Shown here: positions 19,915 through 51,057 of the stretch, in pieces
Layout of the letters: each line of letters opens with the position of its first letter
Numbering within the stretch: position 1 is the first letter of the stretch
DNA from: Dehalococcoidia bacterium
Lineage (GTDB): Bacteria; Chloroflexota; Dehalococcoidia; Lucifugimonadales; UBA3495
DNA length: 64,000 nt
Assembly: GCA_965115955.1 (NCBI GenBank)
Contig: OZ220473.1
Coordinates: 2,389,463 to 2,453,462 of the forward strand
Direction of reading: 5' to 3'
The notes under the pieces: model-generated
What the model saw: only the letters and a program-made list of their open reading frames with translations
Told to the model about the DNA's origin: nothing
Database searches by the model: none
Program-made: the position numbers and the translations under genes

Positions 19915-19943
19915 CAGCTAACCTCTATTCCGGAGAATCCTGC

Positions 19944-19958
19944 GGGGGGGGGGGGGGG
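19944..19958 (-). repeat. homopolymeric tract G15 (C15 on the coding strand) in the diverged leader of member C
   Basis: Counted directly. It lies inside an upstream ORF (..MKPHNIRSHRLSDTRESTPPPPRRILRNRG-TAG) that stops 3 nt before the main ATG. Confidence 0.95.
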
Positions 19959-20106
19959 TAGATTCTCTGGTATCTGATAACCGGTGCGAGCGGATGTTGT
20001 GTGGCTTCATTGCTTTTGCCCCTATGATGTCAGGATTACAGGCTTTGCCCATCCGATGCCTGGAAAGGGACGGTTGGCCGGCGCCCGCGCTGCCTGCTAC
20101 CAAATC

Positions 20107-20135
20107 AGTTTACTCCCGCAGGGGGCAGCAGTCAA
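20107..20135 (-). promoter_or_regulatory. promoter of member C (TTGACT-17-TAAACT)
   Basis: Minus-strand -35 at 20130-20135 and -10 at 20107-20112. A diverged version of the family promoter. Confidence 0.5.
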
Positions 20136-20232
20136 CGCCTGCGGACGGCGCAGATTTCCGTTTTTGCGGGATCGTTTTGCGGAATCGAAGGGGCGGCCCA
20201 CTCACGCCGCCCCCTGATGGTTTTCCGTCCGG

Positions 20233-20427
20233 TTATGCGGCCGCAGGCAACTGCTCGTTCTCCTCAAGCCAGACCGGGGCCGCCGGCCTGGGCCTGGCGG
20301 GCGTCGCAGGCTTGCTCTCCACGTCGCGCATCAGCCCGCACTGGAGGCAGCTCAAGAAGCTCCCGTAGCTGTCGCGGCTCAGCATAACGTCGCCCTGGCA
20401 CTTGGGACACGCGCCGAAGTATATCAT
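20233..20427 (-). CDS. small zinc-ribbon protein
   Basis: 64 aa. CPKC..17 aa..CLQC. Strong [14 protein letters not shown] 5 nt upstream of the ATG. Confidence 0.6.
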   Translation of the reverse strand: MIYFGACPKCQGDVMLSRDSYGSFLSCLQCGLMRDVESKPATPARPRPAAPVWLEENEQLPAAA

Positions 20428-20631
20428 AGAACACCTCCTCTCCCTGCGCGCTGGCGGCGCCGGGAGCCGCTCCTGGCGGTTTTATCCCCGCCTATCCCTG
20501 AAATCCGGCGGCCTTGAGCAGGTTTCCGCATTGAACGGAATCCCGGCGAAATGGACTGCCGCCGCTTTCATTCCCAATTGCTACGCCGGCTGAGTGATAT
20601 TGGATTCTTAATCTGCCGCGCCCCATACAGC

Positions 20632-20660
20632 TTGACACTTCATGTATCAAACCCTATCAT
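20632..20660 (+). promoter_or_regulatory. promoter of hspR-grpE-dnaK (TTGACA-17-TATCAT) with overlapping imperfect inverted repeat
   Basis: -35 at 20632-20637 and -10 at 20655-20660. TTGACAC-N5-GTATCAA (20632-20650) is a possible HspR operator with only a weak match to the HAIR consensus. Confidence 0.55.
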
Positions 20661-20700
20661 ATACATCAGAACAGGTCAATAGATTCAGAGGATATGAAGC

Positions 20701-21192
20701 ATGGCCCAGCAACGGCGTGTCCAGACGAAGCAGCAGACGGCGCGGGAGACCATTCCCGAGGGAGAAACGCCATCCCGCCCTGCGGACACGTCGATAATGC
20801 CTGCCGACCAGGGGCAGCGCCCAGGCAGGGAAGACGACGCCTTGATTGCGATGGAAGGCGTCTACATCATCAGCGTGGCCGCCCGGATTCTGGACATGCA
20901 CCCCCAAACGCTGCGGAAGTATGAGCGTCTGGGGCTTGTGAGGCCCGGCAGAACCCTGGGTATGCTCCGGCTGTACTCCAGAGAAGACATCCGGAAGCTG
21001 CGTCTCATCCGCCGCCTGTCCGACGAGATGGGGCTCAACCTCGCGGGGGTGGAGTTCGCCCTCGCCACGGTGCAGAATCTCCTCACGATGAAGCAGAGGC
21101 TGGCAGCCCGGATGGGGCCGGAAGCCGCCGAAGCGGTGGCCGAGGAACTGACTCTGCTTTTCCAAAGCCTTAACCTTCCCGTTGACCAGTGA
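20701..21192 (+). CDS. hspR: MerR-family heat-shock regulator (HspR-like)
   Basis: 163 aa. MerR HTH (YIISVAARILDMHPQTLRKYERLGLVRPGRT..RLYSREDIRKLRLIRRL). Directly upstream of grpE-dnaK. Confidence 0.65.
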   Translation: MAQQRRVQTKQQTARETIPEGETPSRPADTSIMPADQGQRPGREDDALIAMEGVYIISVAARILDMHPQTLRKYERLGLVRPGRTLGMLRLYSREDIRKLRLIRRLSDEMGLNLAGVEFALATVQNLLTMKQRLAARMGPEAAEAVAEELTLLFQSLNLPVDQ

Positions 21193-21235
21193 AATCCCCA
21201 CGGGGCAATCAGGAATTTTTCGAAGGAACAATTTG

Positions 21236-21862
21236 ATGTCCGACAAACAAGAACCGGGACCGGAACTGGGTCCAAAGGACGACAGCGCCCTGGGAAAGGC
21301 GGGCGAAACCGGGAATGGAGGCGCCGCGCCCGACGATGCGGCGGGTTTCGAGGAACTGACGCCGGAACTGAAAGCGGCGGCTTTGACGGAACGGGTTTTG
21401 ACGGAAAGACTGGAAGCCGCCGAAGCGGAAGCCGAAAAGTTCCGCAAAGAGGTCCAGTACAAGGAGGCCGAGCTGCAGACCCAGCGGCGCCGCTTTGCCG
21501 AGGAGCGCGCCGCCGCCGCCAGATACCGGGACGAAGACCTCCTCATCGACCTGCTCCCGGTCATTGAAGGGCTGGAACTGGCCCTGAATGCGGACTTCTC
21601 AGACCAGTGGGGCAAGGGCGTCAGGCTGGCCGTCCGGGAAATGAAGCGCTGCCTAGAAAGGCGGGGCGTGAGCCTGATCGACGATGCGGTCGGCCAGCCC
21701 TTTGACCCCAATGAACACGAGGCCCTGGCCCGGCAGGAGTCGGCGGAGCAGCCGCCAGACCACGTGATACAGCTGATCAGACCCGGCTACAGGCTGCATG
21801 ACCGCCTTCTTCGGGCCGCCCAGGTGATTGTGGCCCGCCCGCCGGAAAGCGGAGCAGCCTGA
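21236..21862 (+). CDS. grpE: nucleotide exchange factor GrpE
   Basis: Coiled-coil N-terminus followed by ..LLPVIEGLELAL.. and ..FDPNEHEAL..GYRLHDRLLRAAQVIV. ATG 21236 is preferred over the track start 21182. Confidence 0.88.
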   Translation: MSDKQEPGPELGPKDDSALGKAGETGNGGAAPDDAAGFEELTPELKAAALTERVLTERLEAAEAEAEKFRKEVQYKEAELQTQRRRFAEERAAAARYRDEDLLIDLLPVIEGLELALNADFSDQWGKGVRLAVREMKRCLERRGVSLIDDAVGQPFDPNEHEALARQESAEQPPDHVIQLIRPGYRLHDRLLRAAQVIVARPPESGAA

Positions 21863-21944
21863 ACACCCGGCCGGATGCCCCCGCAGGAATTCAGGAACCA
21901 TACTGCACAGTTGGACCAGATTATCATCTTAAGGAGAAGCAGAG

Positions 21945-23849
21945 ATGCCTAAAGTATTGGGCATAGACCTGGGAACCACCAACTCAGTCGCCGCCGTAAT
22001 AGAAGCAGGAGAACCGGGCGTTGTGGATAACGCAGAGGGCGCGCGTCTTACGCCGTCGGTGGTGGCGCTGAACACCCGCACCGGAGAGCGGTACGTAGGC
22101 CAGGTAGCCAAGCGCCAGGCGGTAACCAACCCGGAGAACACGCTGTTCTCCGTCAAGCGGCTGATGGGCCGCCGCTACGACGAGCCCGAGGTGCAGAGCG
22201 CCGCCGCCAAGCTCCCGTACCAGGTAGTGCCGGCGGCCAACGGCGACGCCCACGTCAAGATGGGGGAAGACATCTATGCCCCCCCGCAGATTTCATCCTT
22301 CATTCTGGCCAAAATCAGGCAGGACGCCGAAGCCAGGCTGGGAGAGCGCGTTACCCAGGCGGTCATCACTGTTCCCGCGTATTTCAACGACTCGCAGCGT
22401 CAGGCCACCAAGGACGCCGGCACCATCGCCGGCCTGGAAGTGCTGCGCATCATCAACGAGCCTACAGCCTCGTCCCTGGCCTATGGGCTGGACAAAACCC
22501 GCACCGACGCCAACATCGCCGTGTTCGACCTGGGCGGCGGCACCTTCGACATCACCATCCTGCAAATGGGCGAGGGCGTGTTCGAGGTCAAATCCACCAA
22601 CGGAGACACCTTCCTGGGGGGCGACGACTTCGATCAGGCCGTTCTGGACTGGCTGATCACAGAATTCCGCCGCGAGACGGGAATCGACCTTTCCGCGGAT
22701 CGCATGGCCCTGCAGCGCTTGCGCGACGCCGCAGAACGGGCCAAGGTGGAGCTCTCCAGCGTGGTCGAGACCGAGATCAACCTGCCGTTCATCACCGCCG
22801 ACGCCAGCGGGCCGCAGCACCTGGTGAAGTCGCTCACCAGAGGCCGGTTCGAGCAACTGGTCAGCCCTCTGATAGAACGCACCGCCGGGCCGTGCCAGCG
22901 GGCGCTGGCCGATTCAGGCCTGCCCGCCAGCCAGATCGACGAAGTAATCATGGTGGGCGGCATGTCCCGGATGCCGGCGGTGCAGGAGAAGGTCAAGCAG
23001 ATCTTCGGCAGGGAACCCAACCGCAACGTTAACCCCGACGAAGCAGTGGCTCTGGGAGCCGCGATCCAGGCCGGAGTGCTGGCCGGCGAAGTCGGCGATA
23101 TCGTGCTGCTGGACGTGACCCCCCTGACGCTGGGGCTGGAGACGCTGGGCAGCGTGATGACCACGCTCATCCCGCGCAATACCACCATACCGACGAAGGC
23201 GAACGAGACCTTCACGACTGCCGCCGACAGCCAGACGACCGTGGACATCCACGTGCTGCAGGGCGAGCGGAGCATGGCCGGAGACAACAAATCCATAGGG
23301 CGTTTCATGCTGGACGGCATCCTTCCGGCGCCCAGAGGCATCCCCCAGATCGACGTGACCTTCGACATAGACGCCAACGGCATCCTGAGCGTTTCCGCCC
23401 AGGACAAGGGCACCGGCAAGGAACAGCGCATCGTCATCCAGTCCGGTTCCGGCATGGATAAGACGGACATCGACCGGATGGTGGAGGAAGCCCGCCAGTA
23501 TGAGGCGGAAGACGTGAAGCGGCGGGCCGAGGTGGATACCCGCAACCAGGCCGACTCCATGGTGTATCAGGCCGAAAAGATGCTGAACGACAACGCCGAA
23601 AGCGTGCCGCAGGACCTGCGCTCGGACGTCCAGAGCAGGATCGACGCGCTTAAGGCCGCATCGGCTTCCGGCAGCGTGCCCGAGATGCAGACGGCCATCA
23701 ACGAGCTGAATGCTGCGCTGCAGCGTCTGGGCGAGGTTGTCTACAGCCGGAACACAGCCCAGAGCTCCGGCGCCCCCAGCCCCGGCGCCGGCGAAGCCGA
23801 ACCGCCCGACGACGCTGGCACCGTGGAGGGCGAATTCCGCGAAGTCTGA
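21945..23849 (+). CDS. dnaK: molecular chaperone DnaK (Hsp70)
   Basis: 634 aa. [17 protein letters not shown] and the full Hsp70 layout. Confidence 0.98.
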
Positions 23850-24103
23850 CCCTCTGCCGCACTGGGGCGGCCTTCAGCGGCAGTCCCCGAAAACGAACCG
23901 AAAACGAAACGGAGGGGCGCAAGTCCAATACCGGCTTGTTTCCCTTCCTTCCCCCAGGGTACTTCCTCCAGGATAATTCGTTCAGGAGAAGGTTAAATAA
24001 ACCGGGGGCGGCTTCCCAGACCAATTCCGAACGGAGCTATTCTTTGGTACAATGAGGCACAGGATTTGGGCGCAGCTTCAGGAACAACTGGGCGCACCCT
24101 CGG

Positions 24104-24445
24104 TTGAAAACGGACGGTGAACTCATGAATGCGCAGCCAGAACGAGCAGACAGAGAAGTATTGGGAGATGAGGGCGACTTCGCGCCTTCCATCGTCAACC
24201 CCGCAGTAAATCAGTGGCGGGTGGAAGGCGTAGACCTCGACCTTACCCCCCTGCAGCATCACTATCTGAGCCTGATGAAGCGCCTTATTGCGCTGAAGGA
24301 ACAGTATCAGGCCGACCCGGACGGCGAAGACTGGATGACGGCAGCCATCAGCAAGTCGATATTCTCGACCCTCCGGGACTGCATCGAGGCCAATGTGGGC
24401 GAGGAAGCCAAAGATCTGCTCAACCCCAGGCAACGGGTCGACTGA
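24104..24445 (+). CDS. hypothetical acidic protein
   Basis: 113-aa ORF. Extended -10 TGGTACAAT about 60 nt upstream. No family recognised. The start could be ATG 24125. Confidence 0.4.
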   Translation: MKTDGELMNAQPERADREVLGDEGDFAPSIVNPAVNQWRVEGVDLDLTPLQHHYLSLMKRLIALKEQYQADPDGEDWMTAAISKSIFSTLRDCIEANVGEEAKDLLNPRQRVD

Positions 24446-24492
24446 CTCGCTGCCGGAGTGTCCCTGAATCAGTCGGCCCCGGCCACAGGATG

Positions 24493-24521
24493 TTGACTGC
24501 TGGCCTCTGCGGTAATATACT
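24493..24521 (+). promoter_or_regulatory. promoter of member D (TTGACT-17-TATACT)
   Basis: -35 at 24493-24498 and -10 at 24516-24521. The left palindrome arm is absent in this copy. Confidence 0.6.
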
Positions 24522-24626
24522 GTCCCAGTCTTGGGAGTCGGGCCAGAGCTCCTGCGACTGCTGCATCAGGCATCCTTTCCAGGCATTCCCTGGCCGGGGG
24601 CTGAAATTCGGAGATGGTGAAAGTTA

Positions 24627-26915
24627 ATGACGCCAGACAAGTTCCGCCGGAGTAGAGCCGACAAATCCCCAGGGAGTACCCCCCCCCCCCCCCCGCAGCA
24701 TTACGGGCCCGGCGCTGCGATGATGGGCATCCTGCGCGGCATCGACCGCAAGCTGATCGGGATGGCCCTGGCCGCCGCCCTCATCTCCGCCCTCATCCTC
24801 GCGATGAGCCTCCTCCCCTCTGGGCGAGTCGGCGCATCCATTCCTGCTTCCCTCTCCAGCCAGGCCTCCACTCCCGCCGCCCCAACCGGCTTCACCGCCT
24901 CTGCCGGCCAAAGCAGAGTAAACCTCGCCTGGACCAACCCCGGCAACGCCACCATCGACTACTGGGAATACCAGCAGAAAGTGGGAGACGCCAACTACGG
25001 CTCCTGGGCCGAGATCCCCAACTCCCACAAAGACACCACCTGGGCCGAGATAACCGGCCTCGCCGCCGGCGTCGCCCACAAGTTCAAAATCCGCGCCAGG
25101 AACTCCGCCGGCAATGGCGCCGCGTCCGCAGAAGCGACCGCAACCCCCTCCGCACCGTCCCTGAGGCTCTTCGCAACCGCCGGCAACGGACAGGTAACCC
25201 TCAAATGGGAACTCTCCGGCCCCTACGCAGTGATTACGACGTGGAAAACTTGGGAATACAGCCTCTTTGAAGGTAACTCGTGGTCCAACCCGCTAAAGAT
25301 ATGCAGACAAGTTGAAAGTGGATCATGCCCCGGCGTCAGAACACATACCGTGTCCGGCCTCACCAACGGAAAAGAGTACCAGGTTGAAGTCAGCCTGACC
25401 CCCACCAGCCTCGCCAATGGGCTTGGAGACTTCGACGGGTTTTCAAACGCAGTGACATTCACCCCTTCGGCTTCGGCGCCCGTACCGGCGGGAACCCCCG
25501 CCGCCCCCGCCGGCTTTACCGCCAACGCCGGCGGCAGCAAAGTAACTCTCAGCTGGACCGACCCCGGCGACGAAACCATCGAAAACTGGCAGTACCGCAG
25601 CAAGCGAGGCGGACGCACCTACGGAGACTGGATAGAGATATCCAGCTCCGACAAAGACACCACCAGCCACGAAGTCACCGCTCTCACCAACGGCACGGCG
25701 TATGCTTTCCAGGTTCGCGCGGTCAACGGCGCCGGCTACGGAGCCGCCCCTGCAGAACAGAGCGCCACCCCAGCCCTCCCGCCAACCAGCACACCAACGC
25801 TGACACCAACCAACACCCCAATGCCAACATCGACCAACACGCCGGAGCCGACCAACACCAGCACGCCCACGCCAACATCGACCAACACGCCGGAGCCGAC
25901 CAACACCAGCACGCCCACGCCAACATCGACCAACACGCCGGAGCCGACCAACACCAGCACGCCCACGCCAACATCGACCAACACGCCGGAGCCGACCAAC
26001 ACGCCCACGCCAACATCGACCAACACGCCGGAGCCGACCAACACGCCCACGCCAACATCGACCAACACGCCGGAGCCGACCAACACGCCCACGCCAACAT
26101 CGACCAACACGCCGGAGCCGACCAACACGCCCACGCCAACATCGACCAACACGCCAGCGCCAACGAACGCGCCCTCCAACACGCCGGAGCCGACCAACAC
26201 GCCCACGCCAACATCGACCAACACGCCGGAGCCGACCAACACGCCGACGGCCACTCCGACTCCGACGCATACGCCGACAGCCACGCCGACGCCGACGCAT
26301 ACGCCGACGGCCACTCCAACGCCGACGCACACGCCGACAGCCACTCCGACGCCGACGCACACGCCGACAGCCACTCCGACGCCAACGCATACGCCGGCGC
26401 CGGCAGGTTCGCCGATGCCGTCGAACACGCCAACGGCGACCACGCCGCCGAACACGAACACGGCCACACCGGCAGGTTCGTCGAGCGCGGCCGCTGCCAC
26501 CACGCCGCCGAACACGAACACGCCGACGCGGACAGGTTCGTCGAGGGCGGACAGGGGGCCGACGCCGACGCTGCTGTCCGTCGGCGCGCCGACAGCCACG
26601 CCGATGCCAACGGCTGCGCCGATGCCGACGGCTGCGCCGGCGCCGGCGGACACGCCGATGCCGACGGTCACGCCGGACGGCGAGCCGTCGGCGGTGTTCG
26701 GGGGGCTGGGGCCGCGGCTGGCGAGGGTCTGGCATCTGGAATCGGCAACCCAGACGTGGCGGTTCTACGACCCGGAGCTGCGAGGCGAGGGGCTGAACAC
26801 GCTGACCGGGGTTTCCGCCGGCCAGATAGTGGTGATCATCATCAGCGGGGAAACGCCGGTCGAGTTTCGGGGCGTAACGCTGTATCCGGGCATGAACCTG
26901 GTGTTCCTCGAATAG
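24627..26915 (+). CDS. paralog family member D: FN3-domain secreted protein with long PT-repeat stalk and conserved C-terminal domain
   Basis: 762 aa. Leader ATG fused in frame ([43 protein letters not shown]..). Alternative start at 24720. The N-terminal about 150 aa are roughly 85% identical to member C. Confidence 0.85.
24679..24694 (+). repeat. homopolymeric tract C16
   Basis: Counted directly. Confidence 0.95.
25824..26390. repeat. composite in-frame tandem repeats: 48-nt units, then 42-nt units, then 5 x 30-nt units (26241-26390)
   Basis: Encodes [16 protein letters not shown] x3, [14 protein letters not shown] x4 or more, and [10 protein letters not shown] x5. Confidence 0.85.
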
Positions 26916-26990
26916 AGCGGGGCTGCGACTGGAGCGTTCCCGTTGATAAATTCCCCCGTTGATAAAGAAGTAAAGCCGGTTCGCTGGCAG

Positions 26991-27024
26991 GTTGAAGGGG
27001 CGGCATCCGGGCCGCCCCTTCAAC
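26991..27024 (+). terminator. conserved GC hairpin of the family 3' unit (copy D)
   Basis: GTTGAAGGGGCGGC-ATCCGG-GCCGCCCCTTCAAC. Confidence 0.5.
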
Positions 27025-27143
27025 TTGCGCTTGCCTTACGGGGGCTTCGGCCGTCTGCTCGACGCCGTTGACTTGCATGGCGCTCTTCCGGCGGTAACTC
27101 CCGGCCGCGTCTTCCATTTCGCAACATCCGGCGGCATAGGATG

Positions 27144-27172
27144 TTGACTGCTGGCCTATGAGGTAATATACT
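27144..27172 (+). promoter_or_regulatory. promoter of member E (TTGACT-17-TATACT) with CAACATCC-N9-GGATGTTG palindrome (27122-27146) overlapping the -35
   Basis: Direct reading. Confidence 0.6.
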
Positions 27173-27279
27173 ATGCCAGTCTTGGGCGTCGGGCCAGGGC
27201 GTCTGCGACCGCTGCATCAGGCATCCTTATCCCAGGCATTCCCTGGCCGGGGGCTGAAATTCGGAGATGGTGAAAGTTA

Positions 27280-29214
27280 ATGATGCCAGACAAGTTCCGC
27301 CCGCGTAGAACTGACAAATCCCCAGGGAGTACCCCCCCCCCCCCCCCCCCGCAGCATTCCAGGGCCGGCGCGGCGATGATGGGCATCCTGCGCGGCATCG
27401 ACCGCAAGCTGATCGGGACGGCCCTGGCCGCCGCCGTGGCGCTGACGCTCGTCGCTGTCCTGCTGATCTACGAATCAGCGTCGCCACGGCCCGTGAGCGC
27501 TCAGGCCTCCAGGAATGCGATCGTCACCAAGGTGGTCATCAACGGCGCCGGCACCGCAGCGACCATAACCTGGCAGAAAGGGCCGGGCTGCTCGTCCGAT
27601 ACTCATTTCAGCACAGTGCATGAAGACTCCCTTGCTCAACCCGTCATTGATTTGAACGGAGCCTCCCTTGGGCAGGGCCTGTACTCGACCCCTGGAAGTT
27701 TCACCGCGCCGGGGTTGACCCCAGGCAAAAGATACAGGCTCACGATAAAAGCCACCGGCTGCGGGAGGGTTGATACACGCTTCTTCTTCACAGCCACAGC
27801 CGGAACGACAATCACCTCCACGCCAGCGCCAACGGCCACGCCAGCGCCAGCTCCCCAGGTGGTTATCACCATCAGTAAGGACGCCGGCAGTGCCGGCAGT
27901 ATAGTGACTGCGTTGGCATCAGATAATTTCAAGGTCGCCCAGGCCCCCCGTCCCAACGGAAACAGGGTAACCATCACTCTGCCGGATGGGGTCTCCTCTG
28001 TGCGGGTGCGCCTGAGATGGACCCCGGCAGCGTCGGGCGACACGCCCCGGAACGAAACACTGGCGGTCGGCGAGCACACCCTCACCGGCACAACGCCCGC
28101 CACCAGCACTAATCCCGATGGCGTAGACTACAGCATAGCGGTAGCTGTGCAGACGGCGGCGAACGCTCCCAAGGTGGTTATCAGCGTTGGGAAACACACC
28201 GGCAGCGCAGTTGCGATACCATCACGTGAGTTAGCCGACAATTTCAGCGGCGTCCGGAATAACCGTGACAAGGTAACCATCACCGCGCCGTATGGGGTAT
28301 CCTCCGTTCGGGTGCGCCTGCAATGGACGCCGGTAGCGGCGGGCGACATACCCCGGGACGTAACACTGAATATCGGCGAGAACACCGTCTCCGGCAAAAC
28401 GCCCGCCACCGACGCTAAACCCCAAGGCGAGAACTACAGCATAACGGTAGTTGTGCAAGCGTCGCCCAACACGCCAACGCCCACCAACACGCCGCCGCCG
28501 GCGCCCACCAGCACGCACACGCCAGCGCCCACCAGCACCCCAGCGCCGACCAACACCAACACCCCGGCGCCGACCAATACGCCAGCGCCCACGAACACCA
28601 ACACGCCGGCGCCCACCAATACCCCAGCGCCAACCAGCACGCCGGCGCCCACCAATACCCCAGCGCCAACCAGCACGCCAGCGCCGACCAACACGCCAGC
28701 GCCAACCAGCACGCCGGCGCCCACCAATACGCCAGCGCCGACGAACACCCCGGCGCCCACCAACACGCTTACACCGACAGGTTCGCCGATGCCGTCGAAC
28801 ACGCCAACGGCCACCACGCCGCCGAACACGAACACGGCCACACCGACAGGTTCGCCGATGCCGTCGAACACGCCAACGGCCACCACGCCGCCGAACACGA
28901 ACACGGCTACACCGACAGGTTCGCCGGCGGCTACGTCGGCGCCGGCAGTCACGCCGACGCCGACAGCCGCGCCGTCCGGCTCGCCGTCGGCGGTGTTCGG
29001 CGTGTTGGGGCCGCGGCTGGCGAGGGTCTGGCATCTGGCATCGGCAACCCAGACGTGGCGGTTCTACGACCCGGAACTGAGCATCGAGGGGATGAACACG
29101 CTGGACAGGGTTTCCGCCGGCCAGATAGTGGTGATCATCATCAGCGGGGAAACCCCGGTCGAGTTTCGGGGCGTAACGCTGTATCCGGGCCTGAACCTGG
29201 TGTTCCTCGAATAG
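27280..29214 (+). CDS. paralog family member E: FN3-like N-domain, 2 beta-rich modules, PT stalk, conserved C-terminal domain
   Basis: 644 aa. Leader fused in frame. Alternative start at 27376. The N-terminal about 470 aa are near-identical to F and similar to B. Contains a duplicated [23 protein letters not shown] block. Confidence 0.85.
   Translation: MMPDKFRPRRTDKSPGSTPPPPPPQHSRAGAAMMGILRGIDRKLIGTALAAAVALTLVAVLLIYESASPRPVSAQASRNAIVTKVVINGAGTAATITWQKGPGCSSDTHFSTVHEDSLAQPVIDLNGASLGQGLYSTPGSFTAPGLTPGKRYRLTIKATGCGRVDTRFFFTATAGTTITSTPAPTATPAPAPQVVITISKDAGSAGSIVTALASDNFKVAQAPRPNGNRVTITLPDGVSSVRVRLRWTPAASGDTPRNETLAVGEHTLTGTTPATSTNPDGVDYSIAVAVQTAANAPKVVISVGKHTGSAVAIPSRELADNFSGVRNNRDKVTITAPYGVSSVRVRLQWTPVAAGDIPRDVTLNIGENTVSGKTPATDAKPQGENYSITVVVQASPNTPTPTNTPPPAPTSTHTPAPTSTPAPTNTNTPAPTNTPAPTNTNTPAPTNTPAPTSTPAPTNTPAPTSTPAPTNTPAPTSTPAPTNTPAPTNTPAPTNTLTPTGSPMPSNTPTATTPPNTNTATPTGSPMPSNTPTATTPPNTNTATPTGSPAATSAPAVTPTPTAAPSGSPSAVFGVLGPRLARVWHLASATQTWRFYDPELSIEGMNTLDRVSAGQIVVIIISGETPVEFRGVTLYPGLNLVFLE
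27332..27350 (+). repeat. homopolymeric tract C19
   Basis: Counted directly. Confidence 0.95.
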
Positions 29215-29278
29215 AGCCGGGGCGCGGCGGGAGCGTTCCCCCGTTGATAAAGCGTTAAAGCCGGTTCGCTGGCAAATC

Positions 29279-29306
29279 AGAGGGGCGGCCCGGATGCCGC
29301 CCCTTC
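29279..29306 (+). terminator. conserved GC hairpin of the family 3' unit (copy E)
   Basis: GAGGGGCGGC-CCGGAT-GCCGCCCCTTC. Confidence 0.5.
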
Positions 29307-29427
29307 AACTTGCGCTTGCCTTACGGGGGCTTCCGCCGTCTGCTCGACGCCGTTGACCTGCATGGCGCTCTTCCGGCGGTAACTTCCGGCCGCGTCTTCC
29401 GTTCGCAACATCCGGCGGCATAGGATG

Positions 29428-29456
29428 TTGACTGCTGGCCTCTGCGGTAATATACT
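29428..29456 (+). promoter_or_regulatory. promoter of member F (TTGACT-17-TATACT) with upstream palindrome
   Basis: -35 at 29428-29433 and -10 at 29451-29456. Confidence 0.6.
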
Positions 29457-29561
29457 GGCTCCAGTCACAGGCGTCGGGCCAGGGCGTCTGCGACTGCTGC
29501 ATCAGGCATCCTTATTCCAGGCATTCCCTGGCCGGGGGCTGAAATTCGGAGATGGTGAAAG

Positions 29562-32933
<3,372 letters not shown>

Positions 32934-33040: not shown

Positions 33041-33661
33041 TTACGGGGTGTATCGGGTCAGCTCAGGCCAGAAGCGCTCCTCTTTCCATGGGTCGCCGTT
33101 GTTGTGGTAGCCGCGCTGCTCCCAGAAGCCGGGAGCGTCTTCGGCCATCAGCTCGATGCCGTTGACCCACTTGGCGCTCTTCCAGCCGTAGAGGCTGGGG
33201 ACTATCAGGCGAAGGGGCCAGCCATGGCTCTTTCCCAAGGGCTGCCCTCCCTGCTTGTGGGCCAGTAATCCTTCGTCCAGCGCAAGGCCCAGCGGCAGAT
33301 TGGCGCTGTAGCCGCCGAAGCAGTGAGCCATGATGTATTTGCTTTGAGGCGAAACTCCCGCCAGGGATAACAGGTCGGCCAGCGCCGCGCCTTCCCAGGT
33401 CTGGTCCAGCGCGCTCCACTGGGTTACGCAGTGGAAGTCTGCGTCCAGCGTCTGCCAGGGCAGTTCGGTGAATTCCCGCCAGTCGAGGGTTACTTCCTTT
33501 TCCACCAGGCCGAATACCTTGATCCGCCAGGCGCTGATGTCGATCTCCGGCTCCGGGCCGTAGGTGAGCACCGGGAACCTGCTGGTTACGAACTGGCCGG
33601 GCGGCACCCGCTGGCCGTAGCCCTGGTCGGGCGCTTTCTTTACCTGGTCCGGGCGCTTCAT
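33041..33661 (-). CDS. small sulfite-oxidase-fold molybdopterin oxidoreductase (YedY/MsrP-like catalytic domain)
   Basis: About 206 aa from ATG 33661 (SD GGGAGG). FHCVTQWS (Mo-ligand Cys context), GWPLRLIVP and YGWKSAKWV motifs. No obvious signal peptide. Confidence 0.75.
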   Translation of the reverse strand: MKRPDQVKKAPDQGYGQRVPPGQFVTSRFPVLTYGPEPEIDISAWRIKVFGLVEKEVTLDWREFTELPWQTLDADFHCVTQWSALDQTWEGAALADLLSLAGVSPQSKYIMAHCFGGYSANLPLGLALDEGLLAHKQGGQPLGKSHGWPLRLIVPSLYGWKSAKWVNGIELMAEDAPGFWEQRGYHNNGDPWKEERFWPELTRYTP

Positions 33662-33707: not shown

Positions 33708-34754
33708 CTAGGGCAGCGCCCTGATGCGTCCCGGGTCTCCGCCGGTAATGGAGCCAATCTCTGCGCGGGTGGCTACTCCGCGCGCTTCAAGAGCGTTCAG
33801 CAGCAGGGAAAGGCGCTCTCGCGGCGCCGAAATCAGCAGCCCTCCAGAGGTCTGGGCGTCGCAGAGCAGCAGGCGGTCGCTGGCGGTCAGGGATTCGTCC
33901 CAATCGACGCATTCTTCCACGCCGGCCTGGTTCCGGTGGGTGCCGCCGGGCGCGACGCCCTGGTCCAGCAGTTCTGCCGTTCCGGGGAGAGCGGGTATCG
34001 CCGAGGCGCTGATAACGGCGCTTGCCCGGCTGGCCTGGAGCATTCCCGCCAGATGCCCCATCAGGCCGAAGCCGGTGATGTCGGTGCAGGCGTTGACCCC
34101 GACCTCCATCATGGACTCGGAGGCGGCGCGGTTGAGAGCGGACATGGCGCTCACAGCCGCTTCCACCGATCCGGGCGGGGCAACGCCCGCCTTGAGGCCG
34201 GTGGTGACGATGCCGGTGCCGATGGGCTTGGTGAGCACAAGAACGTCTCCGGGCCGGGCGCCGGCGTTGGACACCTGGCGTCCCGGCTCCACCAGCCCGA
34301 CCACCGACAGGCCGTATTTGGGTTCGCTGTCGTCGATAGTGTGTCCGCCGACGATGAGGCAGTTGGCCTCGGCGGCTTTATCGTAACCGCCGCGAAGCAC
34401 GTCGCCCAGCATATCGCCGGCGAGCGCGGCGGGGAAGCCGACCACGTTCAGGGCAACGAGAGGCTTGCCGCCCATGGCGTATATGTCGCTCAGCGAGTTG
34501 GCGGCGGCGACCGAGCCGAACTCGTAGGGGTCGTCGGTGATGGGCGTGAAGAAGTCCACCGTCACCACCAGGGCGGTCTTATCGTCCAGCCGGTAGACGG
34601 CGGCGTCGTCGCCTGTGGCCGAACCCACCAGCAGGTCGGGATGGTCAGTAACGGGCAGTTTGCTTAGAACCTGAACCAGGTCCTTCCGGCTAAGCTTGGC
34701 CGCTCAACCGGCACAGTGTGACAGATCGGTCAGGCGGACGGGAACATCGACCAT
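33708..34754 (-). CDS. selD: selenide, water dikinase SelD, itself a selenoprotein (Sec at codon 17)
   Basis: The track ORF 33708-34628 lacks the N-terminus. Upstream reading from ATG 34754 (SD AAGGAG, TATAAT further upstream) gives MVDVPVRLTDLSHCAG-U-AAKLSRKDLVQVLSKLPVTDHPDLLVGSATGDDAAVY.., with TGA at 34704-34706 in the position of E. coli Cys17. AIR-synthase-like body (DFFTPI, GGHTIDD). Confidence 0.85.
34662..34695 (-). promoter_or_regulatory. SECIS-like hairpin of selD
   Basis: mRNA sense GCUUAG-CCGGAAG-GACCUG-GUU-CAGGUU-CUAAGC. The apical loop lies 27 nt after the UGA. Confidence 0.55.
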
Positions 34755-34900
34755 CGCCGCGCTCCTTGCATGGTGGATTTCCCGCCATTATACCGCAGCG
34801 CGGGAAGGGGCGGGCGATACAGGATGTGGCTTTATATTGCCTGGAATGATACAGTAGCGCATTACCCTTGATTATTCCGCTTGATTCTCCGGGGGGCTGG

Positions 34901-37631: not shown

Positions 37632-38375
37632 CTATATGTGCCCGTCCTGTCGCAGTTGCTCTATGACCATCCCCACTATTCCGGAGTATTCACAGGATTG
37701 TTGAGTGAAGTAATCAGCGAAAGCCGGTCGGTCCACTGGCGCCAGCGATAAAAGCCCTTTTGCAAAGTCGGTCATCAAGTGGAAGCGATCATACATTACA
37801 TCCAGTTTGTTCAATCCCAAGTCTTTGATAGTTTGCCATGCTCTCTGGCGGGCGTCTCCTGTCAGGCCAGGTTTCGGGATAATCTCTCCGGTGGCCGCAT
37901 CATAGTCAAAATATCGATCAGGGCACTCTGCAACTTCTGCGGCGGCCGGGTCGACGTACCCCAGATGAGGCCAGTTGTCCTTTTTGTTTTCTACGTTGCA
38001 CCGTCGGCAACTGAAAGCCCAGTTAGACCACTCATAAGCTAACTTCGGGAAACGGCTGAGGGGCCGGAAGTGGTCAACCGTGGGCGCCCGCCCGCCGGTT
38101 TCGGCATCGCATTGCCGCTCACAATACCAGCACATATGGCCGCTTCGGCTGGCCAGAGCCGGCCGGAATTTCGACCACTCAAAATCGGAAGGCCGCTCGC
38201 CGGTTCTGTTCTGAAAGTAATTCGCCCAGCCCTGCGTATACAGCCGGCGTAATCCTGCAACCCTGAGGGCCGCCTCGCCGGTTCTGTTCTGAAAGTAATC
38301 CACCCAGCCCTGGGTATACAGTTGTCGTAATCCGGCAACCTCCGCAGGTTCCGGCCCCCGGTCAATACAGCGCAA
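37632..38375 (-). CDS. ptuB: HNH endonuclease, PtuB-like (Septu defence partner)
   Basis: 247 aa. CWYCERQC..VDHFRP..WSNWAFSCRRCNVENK HNH core. Starts 6 nt after the stop of the upstream ATPase. The N-terminus carries a 26-aa tandem duplication. Confidence 0.6.
   Translation of the reverse strand: MRCIDRGPEPAEVAGLRQLYTQGWVDYFQNRTGEAALRVAGLRRLYTQGWANYFQNRTGERPSDFEWSKFRPALASRSGHMCWYCERQCDAETGGRAPTVDHFRPLSRFPKLAYEWSNWAFSCRRCNVENKKDNWPHLGYVDPAAAEVAECPDRYFDYDAATGEIIPKPGLTGDARQRAWQTIKDLGLNKLDVMYDRFHLMTDFAKGLLSLAPVDRPAFADYFTQQSCEYSGIVGMVIEQLRQDGHI
38196..38351. repeat. 2 x 78-nt in-frame tandem duplication inside the HNH gene
   Basis: Encodes VAGLRQLYTQGWVDYFQNRTGEAALR / VAGLRRLYTQGWANYFQNRTGERPSD. 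Roughly 88% nucleotide identity by eye. Confidence 0.85.
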
Positions 38376-38380
38376 CCCGA

Positions 38381-39586
38381 TTATCCTCCGTCTTGGGACA
38401 AGTCGGATTGCCGGGAAAGGAGGAAACGCTGCATCAAGCCTGCGTAGCGTTCCTGCTGAGCCTCCAGCGGGCCGCTTTTGTTTAGGAAGGTTTGATTTAC
38501 CTGATAGCGCAACTCGTTCAGTTCGTCCTCTTCCCCGGTAGTCAGCGTTTCCTTTTCGCGGAGCTGCCGCAATCGCTCGGCCCGGTCTACGGTGAGCTGG
38601 TCGGTAGGCTCGTCCACGCCCATCATTGTGCGCAGGATTTCGTCGGCGGTCCAGCCGATGATGTCCTCGGTGTTGGCGGTGGCGGTGACGACGCCGTTCT
38701 CGTCGCGGTTCAGCAGGTGCACCTGCCCTGCCTTCAGCCCGGCGACGACGAAGGGCGAGTGAGTAGTGGCGAAGATCTGCAAGCGGGGGAAATGCTCCAG
38801 CAGCGCCGGGATTACGCGGCGCTGCCAGGTGGGGTGCAGGTGGTTCTCGATTTCGTCTATGAGGAGGATGGCGGGCATGTCAAACAGATCGAAATTGTAA
38901 TGACCTGCCATTTCAATAGCCAGAGCGTAAATCCACAAAAGGGTGCTTTGGGTACCCGAACTCAGTACGCCAGCGTGTAACGGCTCTCCACGAGCATCGT
39001 CAATAGTGCCTATCCCCATAGCGTGGTGAAGGTCCACAAACCGCCCTCGTTTTTCGTTATAGCCGGTTTCGATATGAGGGTGAGGCCCGTCTTGTATAAT
39101 CTCACGGCAGATGCTCTGGGCGCATCTGAATCCGTGGTTCAAAGCGGACTCCATGTCCGACCCACGAACCTCGTCGAGATGCAGCGCGTCTATAGCTCTT
39201 TGAATATATGTGCCATTCAGGACTTCTGAATAGCTTATGGTAAAGGGTGGCCTGAAGTCGCTGATGTAGTCGTCGTTAGGCACAAGCCCGATGTTTATGC
39301 GGGTGGCGGGTATGTAGGTCAGGGGTGCCGGATACGAGGTCGACCAAATGGCTACTTGCCCGACGTTGCCGTTTATTTCCACCTCGGTCATACGGCCAGT
39401 TGAACCAAGTTCGTCTCTTGCGACCTCGCCGTTCCACTCCGTGGAATAAAACTCCTTTATACTGCGAAGGATGGTGCTCTTGCCGGTCCCGTTCGGCCCT
39501 ACGAACAGATTTACCCGTTCGTTGCAATGAACCAGAATTTTCTTTATGGGCGGCAGCTCCTGTATGGAAAACCCTGTAATGGGCAT
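38381..39586 (-). CDS. ptuA: AAA/ABC-type ATPase, PtuA-like (Septu defence partner)
   Basis: Walker A GPNGTGKST, Walker B ILLIDEIENHLHP, FATTHSPFVV. ATG 39586 (MPITGFSIQEL..) is preferred. The track start 39835 adds 83 unlikely residues. Confidence 0.6.
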   Translation of the reverse strand: MPITGFSIQELPPIKKILVHCNERVNLFVGPNGTGKSTILRSIKEFYSTEWNGEVARDELGSTGRMTEVEINGNVGQVAIWSTSYPAPLTYIPATRINIGLVPNDDYISDFRPPFTISYSEVLNGTYIQRAIDALHLDEVRGSDMESALNHGFRCAQSICREIIQDGPHPHIETGYNEKRGRFVDLHHAMGIGTIDDARGEPLHAGVLSSGTQSTLLWIYALAIEMAGHYNFDLFDMPAILLIDEIENHLHPTWQRRVIPALLEHFPRLQIFATTHSPFVVAGLKAGQVHLLNRDENGVVTATANTEDIIGWTADEILRTMMGVDEPTDQLTVDRAERLRQLREKETLTTGEEDELNELRYQVNQTFLNKSGPLEAQQERYAGLMQRFLLSRQSDLSQDGG

Positions 39587-39969
39587 AACCACAGACCCCA
39601 GCCTGTTAAACTCCCTGGCCGCGCCATGATACCCCAACGTCAATGGAGCGGCAACGATGCCCCGCAGCCTCCCGGAGTCCGCCCTGTGGCCGACTCCAGA
39701 CCTTTGAGCGGTTGGCGCGGCGATGAATGGAAACAGAAATGCCCCCGCTGCGCTGGCGTCGATCAGACAGCGAAACGTCCGGCATACGGGAGCATCATTA
39801 TCATGGGCCAGCAGGTCTTGCCTCGGCTGCTGCAAAGGCCCGATAGTGGTTTGTAGTGCCGGTTATGGAGCCGCGATCTGCCGCCGGCGCGAAGATCCCA
39901 TCGGGACTCCCGAGGGGAAAGGGATTCGTTAGTAACCCTGATATTGAGTGCGCGCTTGCCTGGCAGCGC

Positions 39970-43043: not shown

Positions 43044-43080
43044 TGCCTGAGGTATGGTGGGGAACAGGTGCAGGGAAATG

Positions 43081-43155
43081 GTGGCAACGACTGGGTTCGA
43101 ACCAGTGACCTAGCGCTTATGAAGCGCCCGCTCTGCCGCTGAGCTACGTTGCCAC
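43081..43155 (-). tRNA. tRNA with CAT anticodon (elongator Met, or Ile2 if lysidine-modified), CCA encoded
   Basis: A cloverleaf could be folded by hand. Acceptor GGCAACG/CGTTGCC, D arm GCTC-AGCGGCA-GAGC, anticodon arm GGCGC-TTCATAA-GCGCT, T arm ACTGG-TTCGAAC-CCAGT, A73, CCA. Not initiator-like (G1-C72 paired, no GGG/CCC in the anticodon stem). Confidence 0.85.
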
Positions 43156-45371: not shown

Positions 45372-47078
45372 TCACTCGGAAAGCCCTATGAGGTGGTCGA
45401 AGATATAAAGTCGGTGCGGGTGCGGCTCAAATCCGGCAATCCGCTCACTAATGCCATACACCATATGCGCGTGCGCCACCGGCAAAAGCGCGCTTTCGTC
45501 GGCAACCACGGCCATGGCCTCGCACGCAATTTGCTGCCGCTGCTGAATGTCCGACACATCCCCCGCCTGCTTTATGATGTCCACCAGCCCCGGATTGGAG
45601 TAATGTCCATAGTTGTTGGCTCCGCTGTCACTGCCGTCGGCGTGGTGTCCGAGGAACTTGCTGACGTTCAAAACCGGGTCTCCGGCGTCCACTACGTTGT
45701 TGTACCATCCGAAGAGGTCCCAGACCGGCTCCTTTACCACCGACCATTCGGCGATGCGTACCTGGGCCCGGATGCCCACGTCGGACAGCATGGCCTGGGC
45801 CGCCTAGGCCATAATGGGCAACTGGAACCGTTCCGGATAACCGCCGATGACTATTTCCAGATCCTGCCCGTCCTTGTCCACATACCCGTCGCCGTCGCTG
45901 TCGGCGTAGCCGGCCTCCGCCAGCAAATCTCTGGCGCGCTGCGGATTGTAATTCGGCCCGGCCACTCCGGGGCAGGATGCTAGCGCCTCCGGCAGCAAAA
46001 GGCTCGCAAATGAACCCGTTCCCGCCGGCGCCACCAGCCCAGCGATGCTTTCCCGGTCGATGGCATGGCTTACGGCTTGCCGCACCAGCGGATCGGCTAA
46101 CGTTTCCCGCTCGAAATTGACCCACCACATCACCACCGAAGCGCCGACGCCGTCGGTCAGGCTGCGCAGCCCGGGCAGGGCATCTATACGCTCTGCCCCT
46201 TCCGGGGATATGTTGATGGCAAAGTCAATATCGCCGGCTTGCAGGGCCAGTTCCCGGCTGTTGGTATCCGGGATGGCGATGTGCTCAATGCCGGCCAATG
46301 GCGGAGCTCCTCCCCAGTAATCGTCGTTGGCTACGCTGCTCAAACGCTCTTTGAGGATGTACTCCGTGGGGATGTACGGGCCGGTCAGCGCTCCCGCAGC
46401 GAGGAAACCATCCTCGCCGGCAGCGTCAGCCGACGCCGCGTCCACAATTGCCATGTTAGATGTGGTCAATAACCCCGGCAGTGTGGGGCGCGGCTCCATA
46501 GTAGTGACGATGATAGTCTGATCGTCCTTTACTTCCACGCTTTCAACCGCCAGCCTCTCCGCGGCAGCCGGCGACAACCGGACGGTCCTTTCCAATGACG
46601 CTTTGACCGCTTGAGCGTCCATCACCGCGCCGTTGTGAAACCTGACGCCGGAACGCAGCCCAATCTCCCAGGTCATCTGGTCCAACTGTTCAGCCCCTGT
46701 GGCCAGCCACGGCTCGGGGCTGAGATTGGTCGCAGACAGGCGGAACAGGTTCTCCGACATACCTGATTGACTGGATACCCATGACCCCTCCACCGGGTCC
46801 AGCAGGCCGTCCAGCCAGATAACTCCGGCTTTCAGCGTTGGCCGTTCCTCCTGAACGGCGGCTGTCGGCGCTGTTTGCTCCGGCTCCTCGGTAGGCGCTG
46901 TCGTTGGATCGGATGCGGCGGGGACTGTGGCGGATTGCTCCGGCGCATCCGCAGTTCCGGCTGCAGCAGGCATTGCAGTCTCGGCAGGCTCGTTCGTCGC
47001 CCCGCACGCCACTGCAAGCAGGACGAGCAGGCTCGCCGCTACCGCCATAATGATACGTTGTACCAATAAAGTCGACAT
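45372..47078 (-). pseudogene. family-5 (peptide/nickel) ABC substrate-binding lipoprotein interrupted by one in-frame TAG
   Basis: ORFs 45804-47078 and 45372-45791 are in the same frame, separated only by TAG (45804-45806) plus 4 codons: ..RFQLPIMA-TAG-AAQAMLSDVGIRAQV... Lipobox LLAVACG at the N-terminus. Confidence 0.7.
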
Positions 47079-47479
47079 AAAACCACTCCCCTTTGATTTG
47101 CGATGGATTTCAACGAACCCCTGACCCCAAAATCGCCGCGCCGGCCAAAGATCAGGTTCACCAACGGGTGTCGGTCGGTTCGTTGGTTAACGCAAATAAC
47201 CTCACAGAGCAAATCGCCCTGGTCAATTTGTCAAGTGCCCATTATCCGAGTAGCGAATAGCGAAATCGCCTGGCCGCAGGATCGTGAAAAAATGGGGTTC
47301 GAGAGACCGCCCAGGCTACGGCCTGGACGCGTATTTAGTGTGTCGTAGCCCTTATTAACCGTGCACAATTCTATTTTTGGACGCGGCAACTTGGATATGG
47401 CTCAATTGGTGAGCCCTCGGTGATTCCACCGAGGGCTTGGCGCCTTTGGCTGGTGCTGGTTTGGTTTATCCGCCAGGCT

Positions 47480-48218
47480 GGCTCCAGGTGACGCGGCAAG
47501 CCTGTGACCAGTTGCCGCATTCCATGGAGTAGCTGCGCACGACCATGATGTGCTTCTGTCAGGCGGTCAGTCCGTTCAGGGTAACTCCGGACTGTGCCGT
47601 TCCGGTCGCTTCCGCCGGCTTTGTGCTTCCTTATCGCGGCCCATACCTTGTACTGGTGCTGTCCAGGCTGGGCAGGGGCACACCATCCTCCGACGTTGCG
47701 GGAGTCCTTCCAGGAAACGCTGGTAGCTCCCTCGGCGGTGGGCTCTGCCTTCAGGCCCCGTACTCTGGGGGCCTTGCGCTTCTCAGCCTCGTCCGGCGGG
47801 CTCGGACGGGTGGAGGGGACTGCCGCCTTCTTCGGGACGGAGAATGTTTCCGACCAGGGGCCGTTGCCGTGAGCATTGAATGCCCTGACTCAGTACTCGT
47901 AGGCTGTGCCGTAACGGAGGGTGTGGTAAGCGAAGGCCTGCACCTTCGGGCTGAGCCTGGTGTACTTACTGTACGGAGGGGGCTCACATGGGAGTTTGGT
48001 CAATCCTATGAGTCCTTTCCTGCCTGGCGCACTTTGATTTCGTACCCGGTTGCCGAATCGTCGTCGACCAGGGGCCAGATGACCGTGACGGCTTTGTAAT
48101 GCCTGTCGTCCCTGAACTGGATGGAGCGCAGGATCGTCGGCGCCTGCGTCGGAGTACCGTCTACCTCGGCTTGGTCCTGGGCCTGTACGGCGGTTCCCGA
48201 CGTTGCGGTTATTGACAC
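47480..48218 (-). pseudogene. decayed FN3-repeat gene relic (5'-truncated, frameshifts and in-frame TGAs)
   Basis: Hand translation gives ..VTVIWPLVDDDSATGYEIKVRQAGKDS-stop, then in another frame ..YSKYTRLSPKVQAFAYHTLRYGTAYEY-TGA-VRAFNAHGNGPWSETFSV.., then ..GATSVSWKD.., then a further shift to ..GVTLNGLTA-TGA-QKHIMVVRSYSMECGNWS... A terminator-like hairpin lies at 47411-47436. Confidence 0.55.
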
Positions 48219-48319
48219 CGCTTTCCGTTACGGACGCACCGAAATTCGAGTAGCGAAATCGCTTGGATTGTGCGTCTGATTGTTGGCGAATCGCGACGAT
48301 TCATCTAGAATACGCTCCG

Positions 48320-48688
48320 ATGTGTTCGACCGATCGCAATCCCGGTGTCCTGACGGAACTTGCCGCCGCTCAGCTGCGGGAGGTTGTGGCGGAGCTTGCC
48401 GCCAGGCTGCGACCCTTCCCTGCTTTCCTGGGAATGAGCTCGTTGCAGGCTATCGAGGTGGAACCGCCCCCGGACTCCAGGGACGATTGGGGCTGCGTCG
48501 TAGTGCTGCCCGACGGAGAGATTTGCGGGCTGGAACTGGAGGTCATCCCGGGGCCTGCCGGGCCGGCGGACGTGGACCAGATTGACCGATACAGGCCGAT
48601 GGAGCTGTCTGCCGAAGATTACATTTACTTCGCCGCCGCCGCCGTTCGGCTGATGTCCAGAGAGCTGTCCAAACGAGGCATTCGCTGA
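48320..48688 (+). CDS. hypothetical protein
   Basis: ORF 48263-48688 with first ATG at 48320. No family recognised. Confidence 0.4.
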   Translation: MCSTDRNPGVLTELAAAQLREVVAELAARLRPFPAFLGMSSLQAIEVEPPPDSRDDWGCVVVLPDGEICGLELEVIPGPAGPADVDQIDRYRPMELSAEDYIYFAAAAVRLMSRELSKRGIR

Positions 48689-48991: not shown

Positions 48992-49507
48992 CTAGTCGTC
49001 ATCAAGCCCGATGTCGCCGCTGCGGCCGCCGCGCTTGCGCACCAGGCGCACGCCTTCGATGCATATGCCCCGGTCGACAGCTTTGCACATGTCGTAGAGC
49101 GTCAGGGCGGCAACGGAGACGGCGGTCAGCGCTTCCATCTCGACCCCGGTGCGGGCCGAGGTGCTGGCGGTGGCGGTTACGTCGATACGGCTGAGTTCTT
49201 CGTCCAATTTCAGGTCAACGGTCACATTATCCAGCGGCAGCGGGTGGCACAGAGGAATCAGTTCTGCGGTCTTCTTGGCGGCCATGATGCCGGCTACCTG
49301 GGCCACGGTCAGCACATCGCCCTTCTTCATCAGCCCTTCCCGGATGAGCCTTGCCGTTTCCGGCTGGATGGAAACGCTGCCCTGGGCCACGGCTTCGCGG
49401 CTGGTGATGTCCTTCTCGCCGACATCCACCATTCGCGCCCGTCCATGTTCGTCCAAGTGGGAAAGAGCCGGGTGGGAAAGGGACTGCTGCTGGTGTGGAG
49501 TTGTCAT
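48992..49507 (-). CDS. moaC: cyclic pyranopterin monophosphate synthase MoaC
   Basis: [24 protein letters not shown] and [22 protein letters not shown] motifs. ATG 49507 overlaps the rnhA stop (ATGA). Confidence 0.9.
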
Positions 49508-50013
49508 AACTGTCCTATTCGCTGATTCTCGAACCCGTCGTCTCTCGCCAGGTTGTCTCTGCCGGCCGCAGCAACTGCCAGCCTGTCGGCCCGCACATTG
49601 CCAGTGTTGCCGACGTGTCCACGCACCCACTTGAACTCGGCGTCGTGCTGCTCCAGAGCGGCAAGCAGCCTATCCCAAAGGTCAGGGTTAGCGGCCCGTT
49701 CCCGTCTGTTGCGCATCCAGCCGTTGGTTTTCCACTTCTTGGCCCAGCCCTTCTCAATCGCGTCTACAACGTAGCTGGAATCGCTGTACACTGTGACTGT
49801 GCAAGGCTGTTTCAATGCTTCGATCCCAGCGATGGCGGCGAGGATTTCCATACGGTTGTTGGTGGTGTGCCGAAAACCTCCGGAGATTTCCTTCTCCTGT
49901 CCCTGGTATTCCAGGATCGCGGCGTAACCCCCTGGCCCGGGATTGCCCAGGCACGAGCCGTCGGTATAAATGGTTACGCGATCATGGACTGCGTTTCTAG
50001 TCGTTTCTATCAT
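49504..50013 (-). CDS. rnhA: ribonuclease HI
   Basis: 169 aa. [46 protein letters not shown]. Confidence 0.9.
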
Positions 50014-51049: not shown

Positions 51050-51057
51050 TAGGCATG

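Follow-up and report, generated by a model that had tools for sequence, protein, structure and literature searches.

A selD gene of a Dehalococcoidia bacterium whose in-frame UGA almost certainly encodes selenocysteine at the catalytic position

Among prokaryotic selenoprotein families, SelD (selenide, water dikinase) ranks second in how widely it occurs, and UxxK is the form listed for the selenoprotein in a 2026 review (PMC13188914). SelD and FdhA have also been described as more widespread than any other bacterial selenoprotein (PMC1794560), and SelD is documented as frequently misannotated. The enzyme of E. coli (PDB 3u0o) is a cysteine form, with Cys17 and a second cysteine, Cys19, in the loop GAGCGCK. 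Members of the same family from Aquifex aeolicus and Acetomicrobium mobile (BSepDB) contain selenocysteine (Sec) in a G-U-A-A-K loop, and the crystals of the Aquifex protein (PDB 2yye/2zod) contain a form with Cys in place of Sec. In the known Sec-SelD genes the UGA takes the place of the codon for E. coli Cys17 and is followed, within the coding sequence, by a SECIS hairpin. The SECIS of E. coli fdhF, which serves as reference, likewise lies inside the open reading frame, as a stem-loop directly 3' of the UGA, and its small apical loop carries a G and then a U (consensus model, PMC13188914). Bacterial SECIS elements of different genes are generally dissimilar to each other (PMC13188914). Dehalococcoidia MAGs are among the most selenoprotein-rich bacteria in BSepDB, where a Sec user is a species with at least two Sec pathway genes; its list includes one MAG named in the UUID style that is common among the related loci analysed below.

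The 64-kb stretch of Dehalococcoidia DNA analysed here (the window) contains a selD gene that shares this arrangement, with a UGA where E. coli has Cys17 and a candidate SECIS hairpin in the coding sequence right after it. We put the probability that it is a selenocysteine-containing, Sec-decoded selD at about 0.94. The full-length coding sequence, as defined by translation, profile matches and structure alignment, occupies 33708-34754 on the minus strand and consists of 348 codons including Sec17, closed by a TAG at 33710-33708. A single in-frame TGA is present in this frame, at codon 17 (34704-34706). The ATG at 34752-34754 is the only start codon of the frame upstream of the TGA; 5' of it the frame is closed after 12 codons and offers no other start. 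Sixteen sense codons lie between this ATG and the TGA (MVDVPVRLTDLSHCAG), and the same frame then continues to the TAG (AAKLSRKDLVQVLSKLP). Re-reading of the minus strand thus bears out the coordinates and the translation that had been proposed for selD in an initial annotation of this DNA. The mechanically called ORF (33708-34628, minus strand) starts at a GTG and encodes 306 aa; the ORF list confirms the earlier statement that this call, beginning at 34628, is without the catalytic N-terminal loop. A gene caller based on GC content by codon position was dropped, as it chose the antisense frame of selD.

A putative ribosome-binding site, AAGGAG, is located at 34762-34767 with a spacer of 7 nt to the ATG, which corrects the 8 nt given in the initial annotation while leaving the motif itself in place. 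In close relatives an ATG is likewise found 16 codons ahead of the selD TGA with a GGAG-like motif before it, and purine-rich motifs of this kind occur at the equivalent place in selD relatives. The hexamer TATAAT noted further upstream is present at 34787-34792 (minus strand). However, a consensus sigma-70 scan of the region upstream of selD gave no two-hexamer promoter, the TATAAT having no -35 partner, and the hexamer is listed here as a possible, unsupported -10 box.

The 348-aa product, with X at codon 17, matches TIGR00476 (selenide, water dikinase SelD) with 372.5 bits, far above the cutoff of 125, from residue 7 to residue 313 of the product and over positions 1-309 of the 311 in the profile. 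It also scores 334.1 bits with NF002098 (cutoff 299), and the precomputed domain assignment of the truncated product in the window is PF00586 plus PF02769 (AIRS and AIRS_C), the PurM-like two-domain architecture. Alignment to E. coli SelD extends over residues 5-315 with 240 bits. The GDDAAVY, TVDFF, ANSLSD and TDITGFG motifs match the E. coli protein (3u0o) column by column, so that the two share DDAAVY, TxDFF, NxxSD and TDxTGFG together with the loop lysine, Lys20. By this alignment the acidic residues that bind ATP and metal, D51, D68, N87, D91 and D227 in the E. coli numbering, are conserved.

In the N-terminal glycine-rich loop, which reads SHCAG-TGA-AAK, X17 stands opposite E. coli Cys17 and K20 opposite K20, which gives the UxxK pattern. 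The aligned SelD of Aquifex aeolicus (2yye) has GCAAK at the same site. The upstream extension can therefore be recognised, from the alignment to the E. coli and Aquifex enzymes, as the catalytic loop of SelD. The claim that it is homologous to SelD N-termini holds, since the TIGR00476 match begins at profile position 1 and the 3u0o alignment at residue 5, and so does the placement of the TGA at the catalytic Cys17 position. The loops differ in their second cysteine. E. coli SelD combines Cys17 with Cys19, whereas the window SelD combines the UGA at 17 with Cys14 and has Ala19; this Cys three residues before Sec (C-A-G-U) is found neither in Aquifex (SSG-C/U-AAK) nor in Acetomicrobium (TSGUAAK).

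A scan that retained one genome per species recovered 80 related loci, mostly from Dehalococcoidia/Chloroflexota MAGs and many with sponge-associated names, in which SelD identity ranges from 84% to 51%. The search patterns had been back-translated with Cys at the Sec position, and recovery of loci therefore did not favour TGA. The homologous codon is TGA in 74 of the 79 informative loci and TGT or TGC in the remaining 5 (the 80th locus is cut off), and this alternation of TGA with Cys codons agrees with the proposal that the in-frame TGA is a Sec codon. In the stretch of 11 codons that precedes the TGA, the entropy per column averages 0.79, 0.35 and 1.42 bits at codon positions 1, 2 and 3, respectively. 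Variation is thus mainly at third positions while the peptide RLTxLSHCAG is kept at the protein level, which shows that these 11 codons are translated. Coding-type conservation is seen on both flanks of the UGA, the downstream side being the SelD body. Translation of the upstream codons together with retention of the TGA leaves hardly any room for a pseudogene, a downstream start or a one-off base error.

The candidate SECIS apical hairpin is located at 34666-34684 (minus strand). Its 8-bp stem is formed by AGGACCUG and CAGGUUCU, and its GUU loop (34674-34676) begins 27 nt after the UGA. The published bSECIS model (PMC13188914) asks for a loop of 3-9 nt, a stem of 4-16 bp, a G in loop positions 1-2, a distance of 16-37 nt from UGA to loop and an MFE of -7.5 kcal/mol or lower. 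The hairpin lies within all of these limits, with its GUU loop, its 6-8 bp stem, its 27-nt spacing and an energy of -8.7 kcal/mol for the hairpin alone or -10.3 kcal/mol for a longer two-stem form. The bacterial SECIS geometry that had been suggested for this stem-loop is thus well founded. Among the relatives, the 19-nt hairpin alone reaches -7.5 kcal/mol or lower in 51 of 74. No sequence similarity exists between this predicted SECIS and that of E. coli fdhF, and the distance from the UGA to its apical loop, 27 nt, is greater than the 17 nt that we count in the printed Acetomicrobium example.

Folding of 34640-34710, which the initial annotation had recommended, gives an MFE structure with two hairpins, one at 34687-34710 with the UGA in its 5' arm and the other at 34666-34684. 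The expected hairpin is therefore present, but the energy is only modestly unusual (-25.1 kcal/mol for the 71 nt, z = -1.86, with 9 of 200 shuffles folding equally well). Compared with synonymous recodings, the overall MFE of the window sequence is no better, as 22% of them fold as well. RNAalifold did not recover the hairpin from the 74-sequence alignment and returned a trivial 2-bp structure only, for which reason pairs were counted on explicit structures. Rfam gave no match at the hairpin site, whether gathering or permissive thresholds were applied. No Rfam family for bacterial selD SECIS elements is known to us, and the null result accordingly carries little weight.

Counted over the 74 aligned sequences, pairing is maintained in 89.9% of cells for the 8-bp stem and in 92.6% for its 6-bp core, and it falls to 20-50% when the partner strand is shifted by 1-3 columns. 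Compensatory changes are seen at 3 of the 8 stem pairs, two of them core pairs, and include switches from GAC/GUC to GAU/AUC in 4 sequences and from CUG/CAG to CUC/GAG in 4. Since the stem also encodes a conserved peptide, D-L-x-Q-V, synonymous sites were tested. The Val codon of the stem is a pairing GUC or GUU in 57 of 70 sequences (49% in the rest of these genes), the Leu codon is CUG or UUG in 62 of 74 (60% elsewhere) and the Gln codon is CAG in all 62 of 62 (75% elsewhere), with the reservation that p-values for this codon bias ignore shared ancestry. The loop opens with a G in 71 of 74 sequences, although the residue encoded there can be Ala, Val or Gly. The direction of the codon choice and the retained loop G are consistent with selection acting on the RNA.

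The initial annotation had described a two-part stem, and its parts fare differently. The apical part (GACCUG/CAGGUU) is supported by the pairing described above. The two-stem form spans 34 nt (34662-34695, -10.3 kcal/mol), and its lower stem (GCUUAG/CUAAGC, 34690-34695 with 34662-34667) is less well supported, being paired in 80% of cells over the 74 sequences against 84% for a competing helix. This competitor is the 5' hairpin of the MFE fold (34688-34709, minus strand; GGUUGAGC/GCUUAGCC), whose 5' arm includes the UGA; it was counted with the extra pair 34687-34710. The two-stem form and the 5' hairpin are mutually exclusive, because GCUUAG at 34690-34695 (GCUNAG in relatives) has two possible partners, the UUGAGC that contains the UGA and the downstream CUAAGC (CURAGC). 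This double pairing may represent an alternative-structure arrangement around the Sec codon, and it could form a switch by which the lower stem of the SECIS becomes exposed only on arrival of the ribosome.

The TGA at codon 17 can be explained in other ways. Had a nonsense mutation inactivated selD, the gene would be expected to contain one in-frame stop and to be intact apart from it, as is seen here, and the window does contain one gene split by an in-frame TAG. However, the same TGA is found in 74 related genomes with SelD identity down to ~52%, in all of which the frame is intact and both flanks of the codon are under purifying selection, and it is replaced by Cys codons only; decay to a pseudogene is thus extremely improbable. 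The codon is also one base away from a Cys codon, as an assembly or sequencing error for TGC or TGT would have it, yet it recurs in 74 of 79 independent assemblies from many projects and is followed by a hairpin that appears to be under selection specific to Sec decoding, so that we give such an error a negligible chance. The short form could instead be the real protein, with translation starting after the TGA (at GTG 34628 or nearby) and the 16 upstream codons acting as a leader or small uORF. Downstream starts are indeed called in all of the best 120 database homologues, but the called starts differ among relatives (codon 27, 35 or 43) in the manner of an artefact, RLTxLSHCAG is conserved as protein and homologous to the N-terminal loop of SelD, and the resulting enzyme would be without the catalytic loop that holds Sec/Cys17 and Lys20. 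We regard this as very improbable.

It could further be argued that the UGA is read as something other than Sec, either by a near-cognate Cys or Trp tRNA or through a lineage-wide reassignment, since the Sec machinery was not directly observed in the 64-kb window and the 80 loci. ARAGORN found no tRNA-Sec in the window, whose sole tRNA is a tRNA-Met (43079-43153), and none in the 80 related loci, where selA, selB and tRNA-Sec are likewise missing within 6 kb of selD. Regular-expression scans for the SelA PLP-lysine motif and for the GHxDHGK motif of SelB/EF-type proteins returned nothing in the window or the loci, and family scans of 40 further window ORFs gave no selenium-related gene. These absences are uninformative because the window and the flanks make up a small part of the genome, the contig being ~2.9 Mb. 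Against a non-Sec reading, TGA terminates 8 of the 26 confident genes of the window, and UGA is therefore not reassigned genome-wide. Codon 17 is moreover where SelD proteins are known to have Sec or Cys, it is followed by a SECIS-type hairpin that has been kept together with the G of its loop, and the class has been reported to contain Sec users (BSepDB). Readthrough with another amino acid is accordingly a highly improbable explanation.

The in-frame UGA at the catalytic position thus almost certainly encodes selenocysteine. According to this selenocysteine reading, translation would begin at ATG 34754, Sec would be inserted as residue 17 within the glycine-rich catalytic loop SHCAG-U-AAK, and synthesis would run on to TAG 33708 to give a 348-residue enzyme, which is predicted from its sequence to make selenophosphate from selenide and ATP. 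The identity of the residue at codon 17 as Sec is what we infer from the codon, its position and its context, and by the same token SelB, SelA and tRNA-Sec presumably exist in the genome and act on the hairpin. The initial annotation went further in stating that the sequence context proves Sec decoding by the organism. The Sec reading is supported by our analysis, but proof is too strong a word with no selA, selB or selC in the 64-kb window.

It had also been suggested that other TGA-truncated ORFs deserve re-inspection, and none came to light in the window or in the ~1 Mb of flanks from the relatives. A crude codon-usage scan of all in-frame TGAs of the window left selD as the sole strongly coding case besides the nuo operon, where the results are adjacent genes in the same frame. 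Clustering of TGA-bridged peptides across ~1 Mb of the relatives' loci, also crude, returned only selD and out-of-frame shadows.

The cysteine that accompanies the Sec site follows a regular pattern among the relatives. Each of the 80 SelD N-termini (codons 14-20 in the window, 34695-34715) contains exactly one extra Cys, which is placed three residues before Sec (CxxU) in 69 and two residues after it (UxC/CxC) in 11, and none of the 80 has both or neither. This hints that the single partner Cys is an obligatory selenenylsulfide partner whose position has been switched. The one-partner rule is not universal, as both cysteines are missing from the SelD of Aquifex and Acetomicrobium.

Downstream of selD, 47 nt after its stop, is a gene for a 206-aa molybdopterin protein of the sulfite-oxidase fold (33041-33661, minus strand; PF00174, 139 bits, no equivalog name). 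It adjoins selD in 28 related loci (L001-L030, L054 and L081-L086 were examined). An obligate operon of selD and the molybdoenzyme gene was considered and is weakened, since the wider synteny (MerR-GrpE-DnaK) is conserved just as well and some relatives have RtcB/Archease genes, on the opposite strand, between the two genes. A selenium-related role of the molybdoenzyme is only a possibility. The combined proposal of a mechanistic variant of SelD in Dehalococcoidia, an RNA switch at the Sec codon and a selenium role of the molybdoenzyme appears doubtful as a whole. The window further contains moaA (50015-51061) and moaC (48992-49630).

The surroundings of selD show several other features. A Septu-type anti-phage pair is located at 37632-39835 (minus strand) and consists of an HNH nuclease (PtuB, best 75 bits) and an AAA ATPase (PtuA, best 129 bits); Septu-like genes were seen in only one of the related loci (L009). 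The gene split by an in-frame TAG encodes a family-5 ABC substrate-binding protein (45372-47078, minus strand; TAG at 45804-45806, reading ERFQLPIMA-stop-AAQAMLSDVGI) and is a pseudogene or contains a base error, with no Sec codon involved. Fibronectin type III (FN3) fragments at 47300-48320 (minus strand), in two frames and with several stops (GTAYEY-stop-VRAFNAHGNGPWSE), look like a decayed paralogue of large FN3 genes nearby. The latter encode paralogous proteins with FN3 domains and long Pro/Thr-rich repeats within 18409-32933 (18409-19914 on the minus strand, 24627-26915 and 29562-32933 on the plus strand), a cluster with strong strand-specific skew. The long ORFs near it (14277-15413, 15849-18062 and 27280-29214) gave no match in Pfam. 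In relatives, MerR-GrpE-DnaK is directly beside the molybdoenzyme gene in the interval of the FN3 cluster, which therefore looks inserted, and the dnaK operon of the window is inverted as compared to the relatives.

Annotation of this SelD has gone astray well beyond the window. The best 120 matches in a collection of 5.8 billion proteins are all 306-322 aa in length, with query coverage no higher than 93%, and the homologues fetched from among them have codon 27 or 35 as their start and thus begin past the site of the UGA. Since all of these best 120 matches are short and start past the UGA, the truncation is systematic. The NCBI assembly GCA_027624135.1 (L085, 2820-3866) has its homologue called through the TGA at 348 aa, and an ENA assembly (L086, 2922-3866) in which the genes around selD are arranged in the same way has it called at 314 aa. 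This pair shows the route by which truncated forms of SelD enter protein collections.

Sec-containing selD and its misannotation are already known, and what is reported here is the correct recognition of a known situation, which opens no new biological question. Its value lies in annotation, as the catalytic N-terminus of SelD is missing here and in the best 120 matches, and surveys at the protein level consequently under-describe the SelD of this clade. The selD gene flags this genome as a probable Sec decoder, so that TGA-terminated ORFs elsewhere in it deserve a check for Sec/Cys pairs. Protein surveys would otherwise miss the use of Sec by sponge- and marine-associated Dehalococcoidia.
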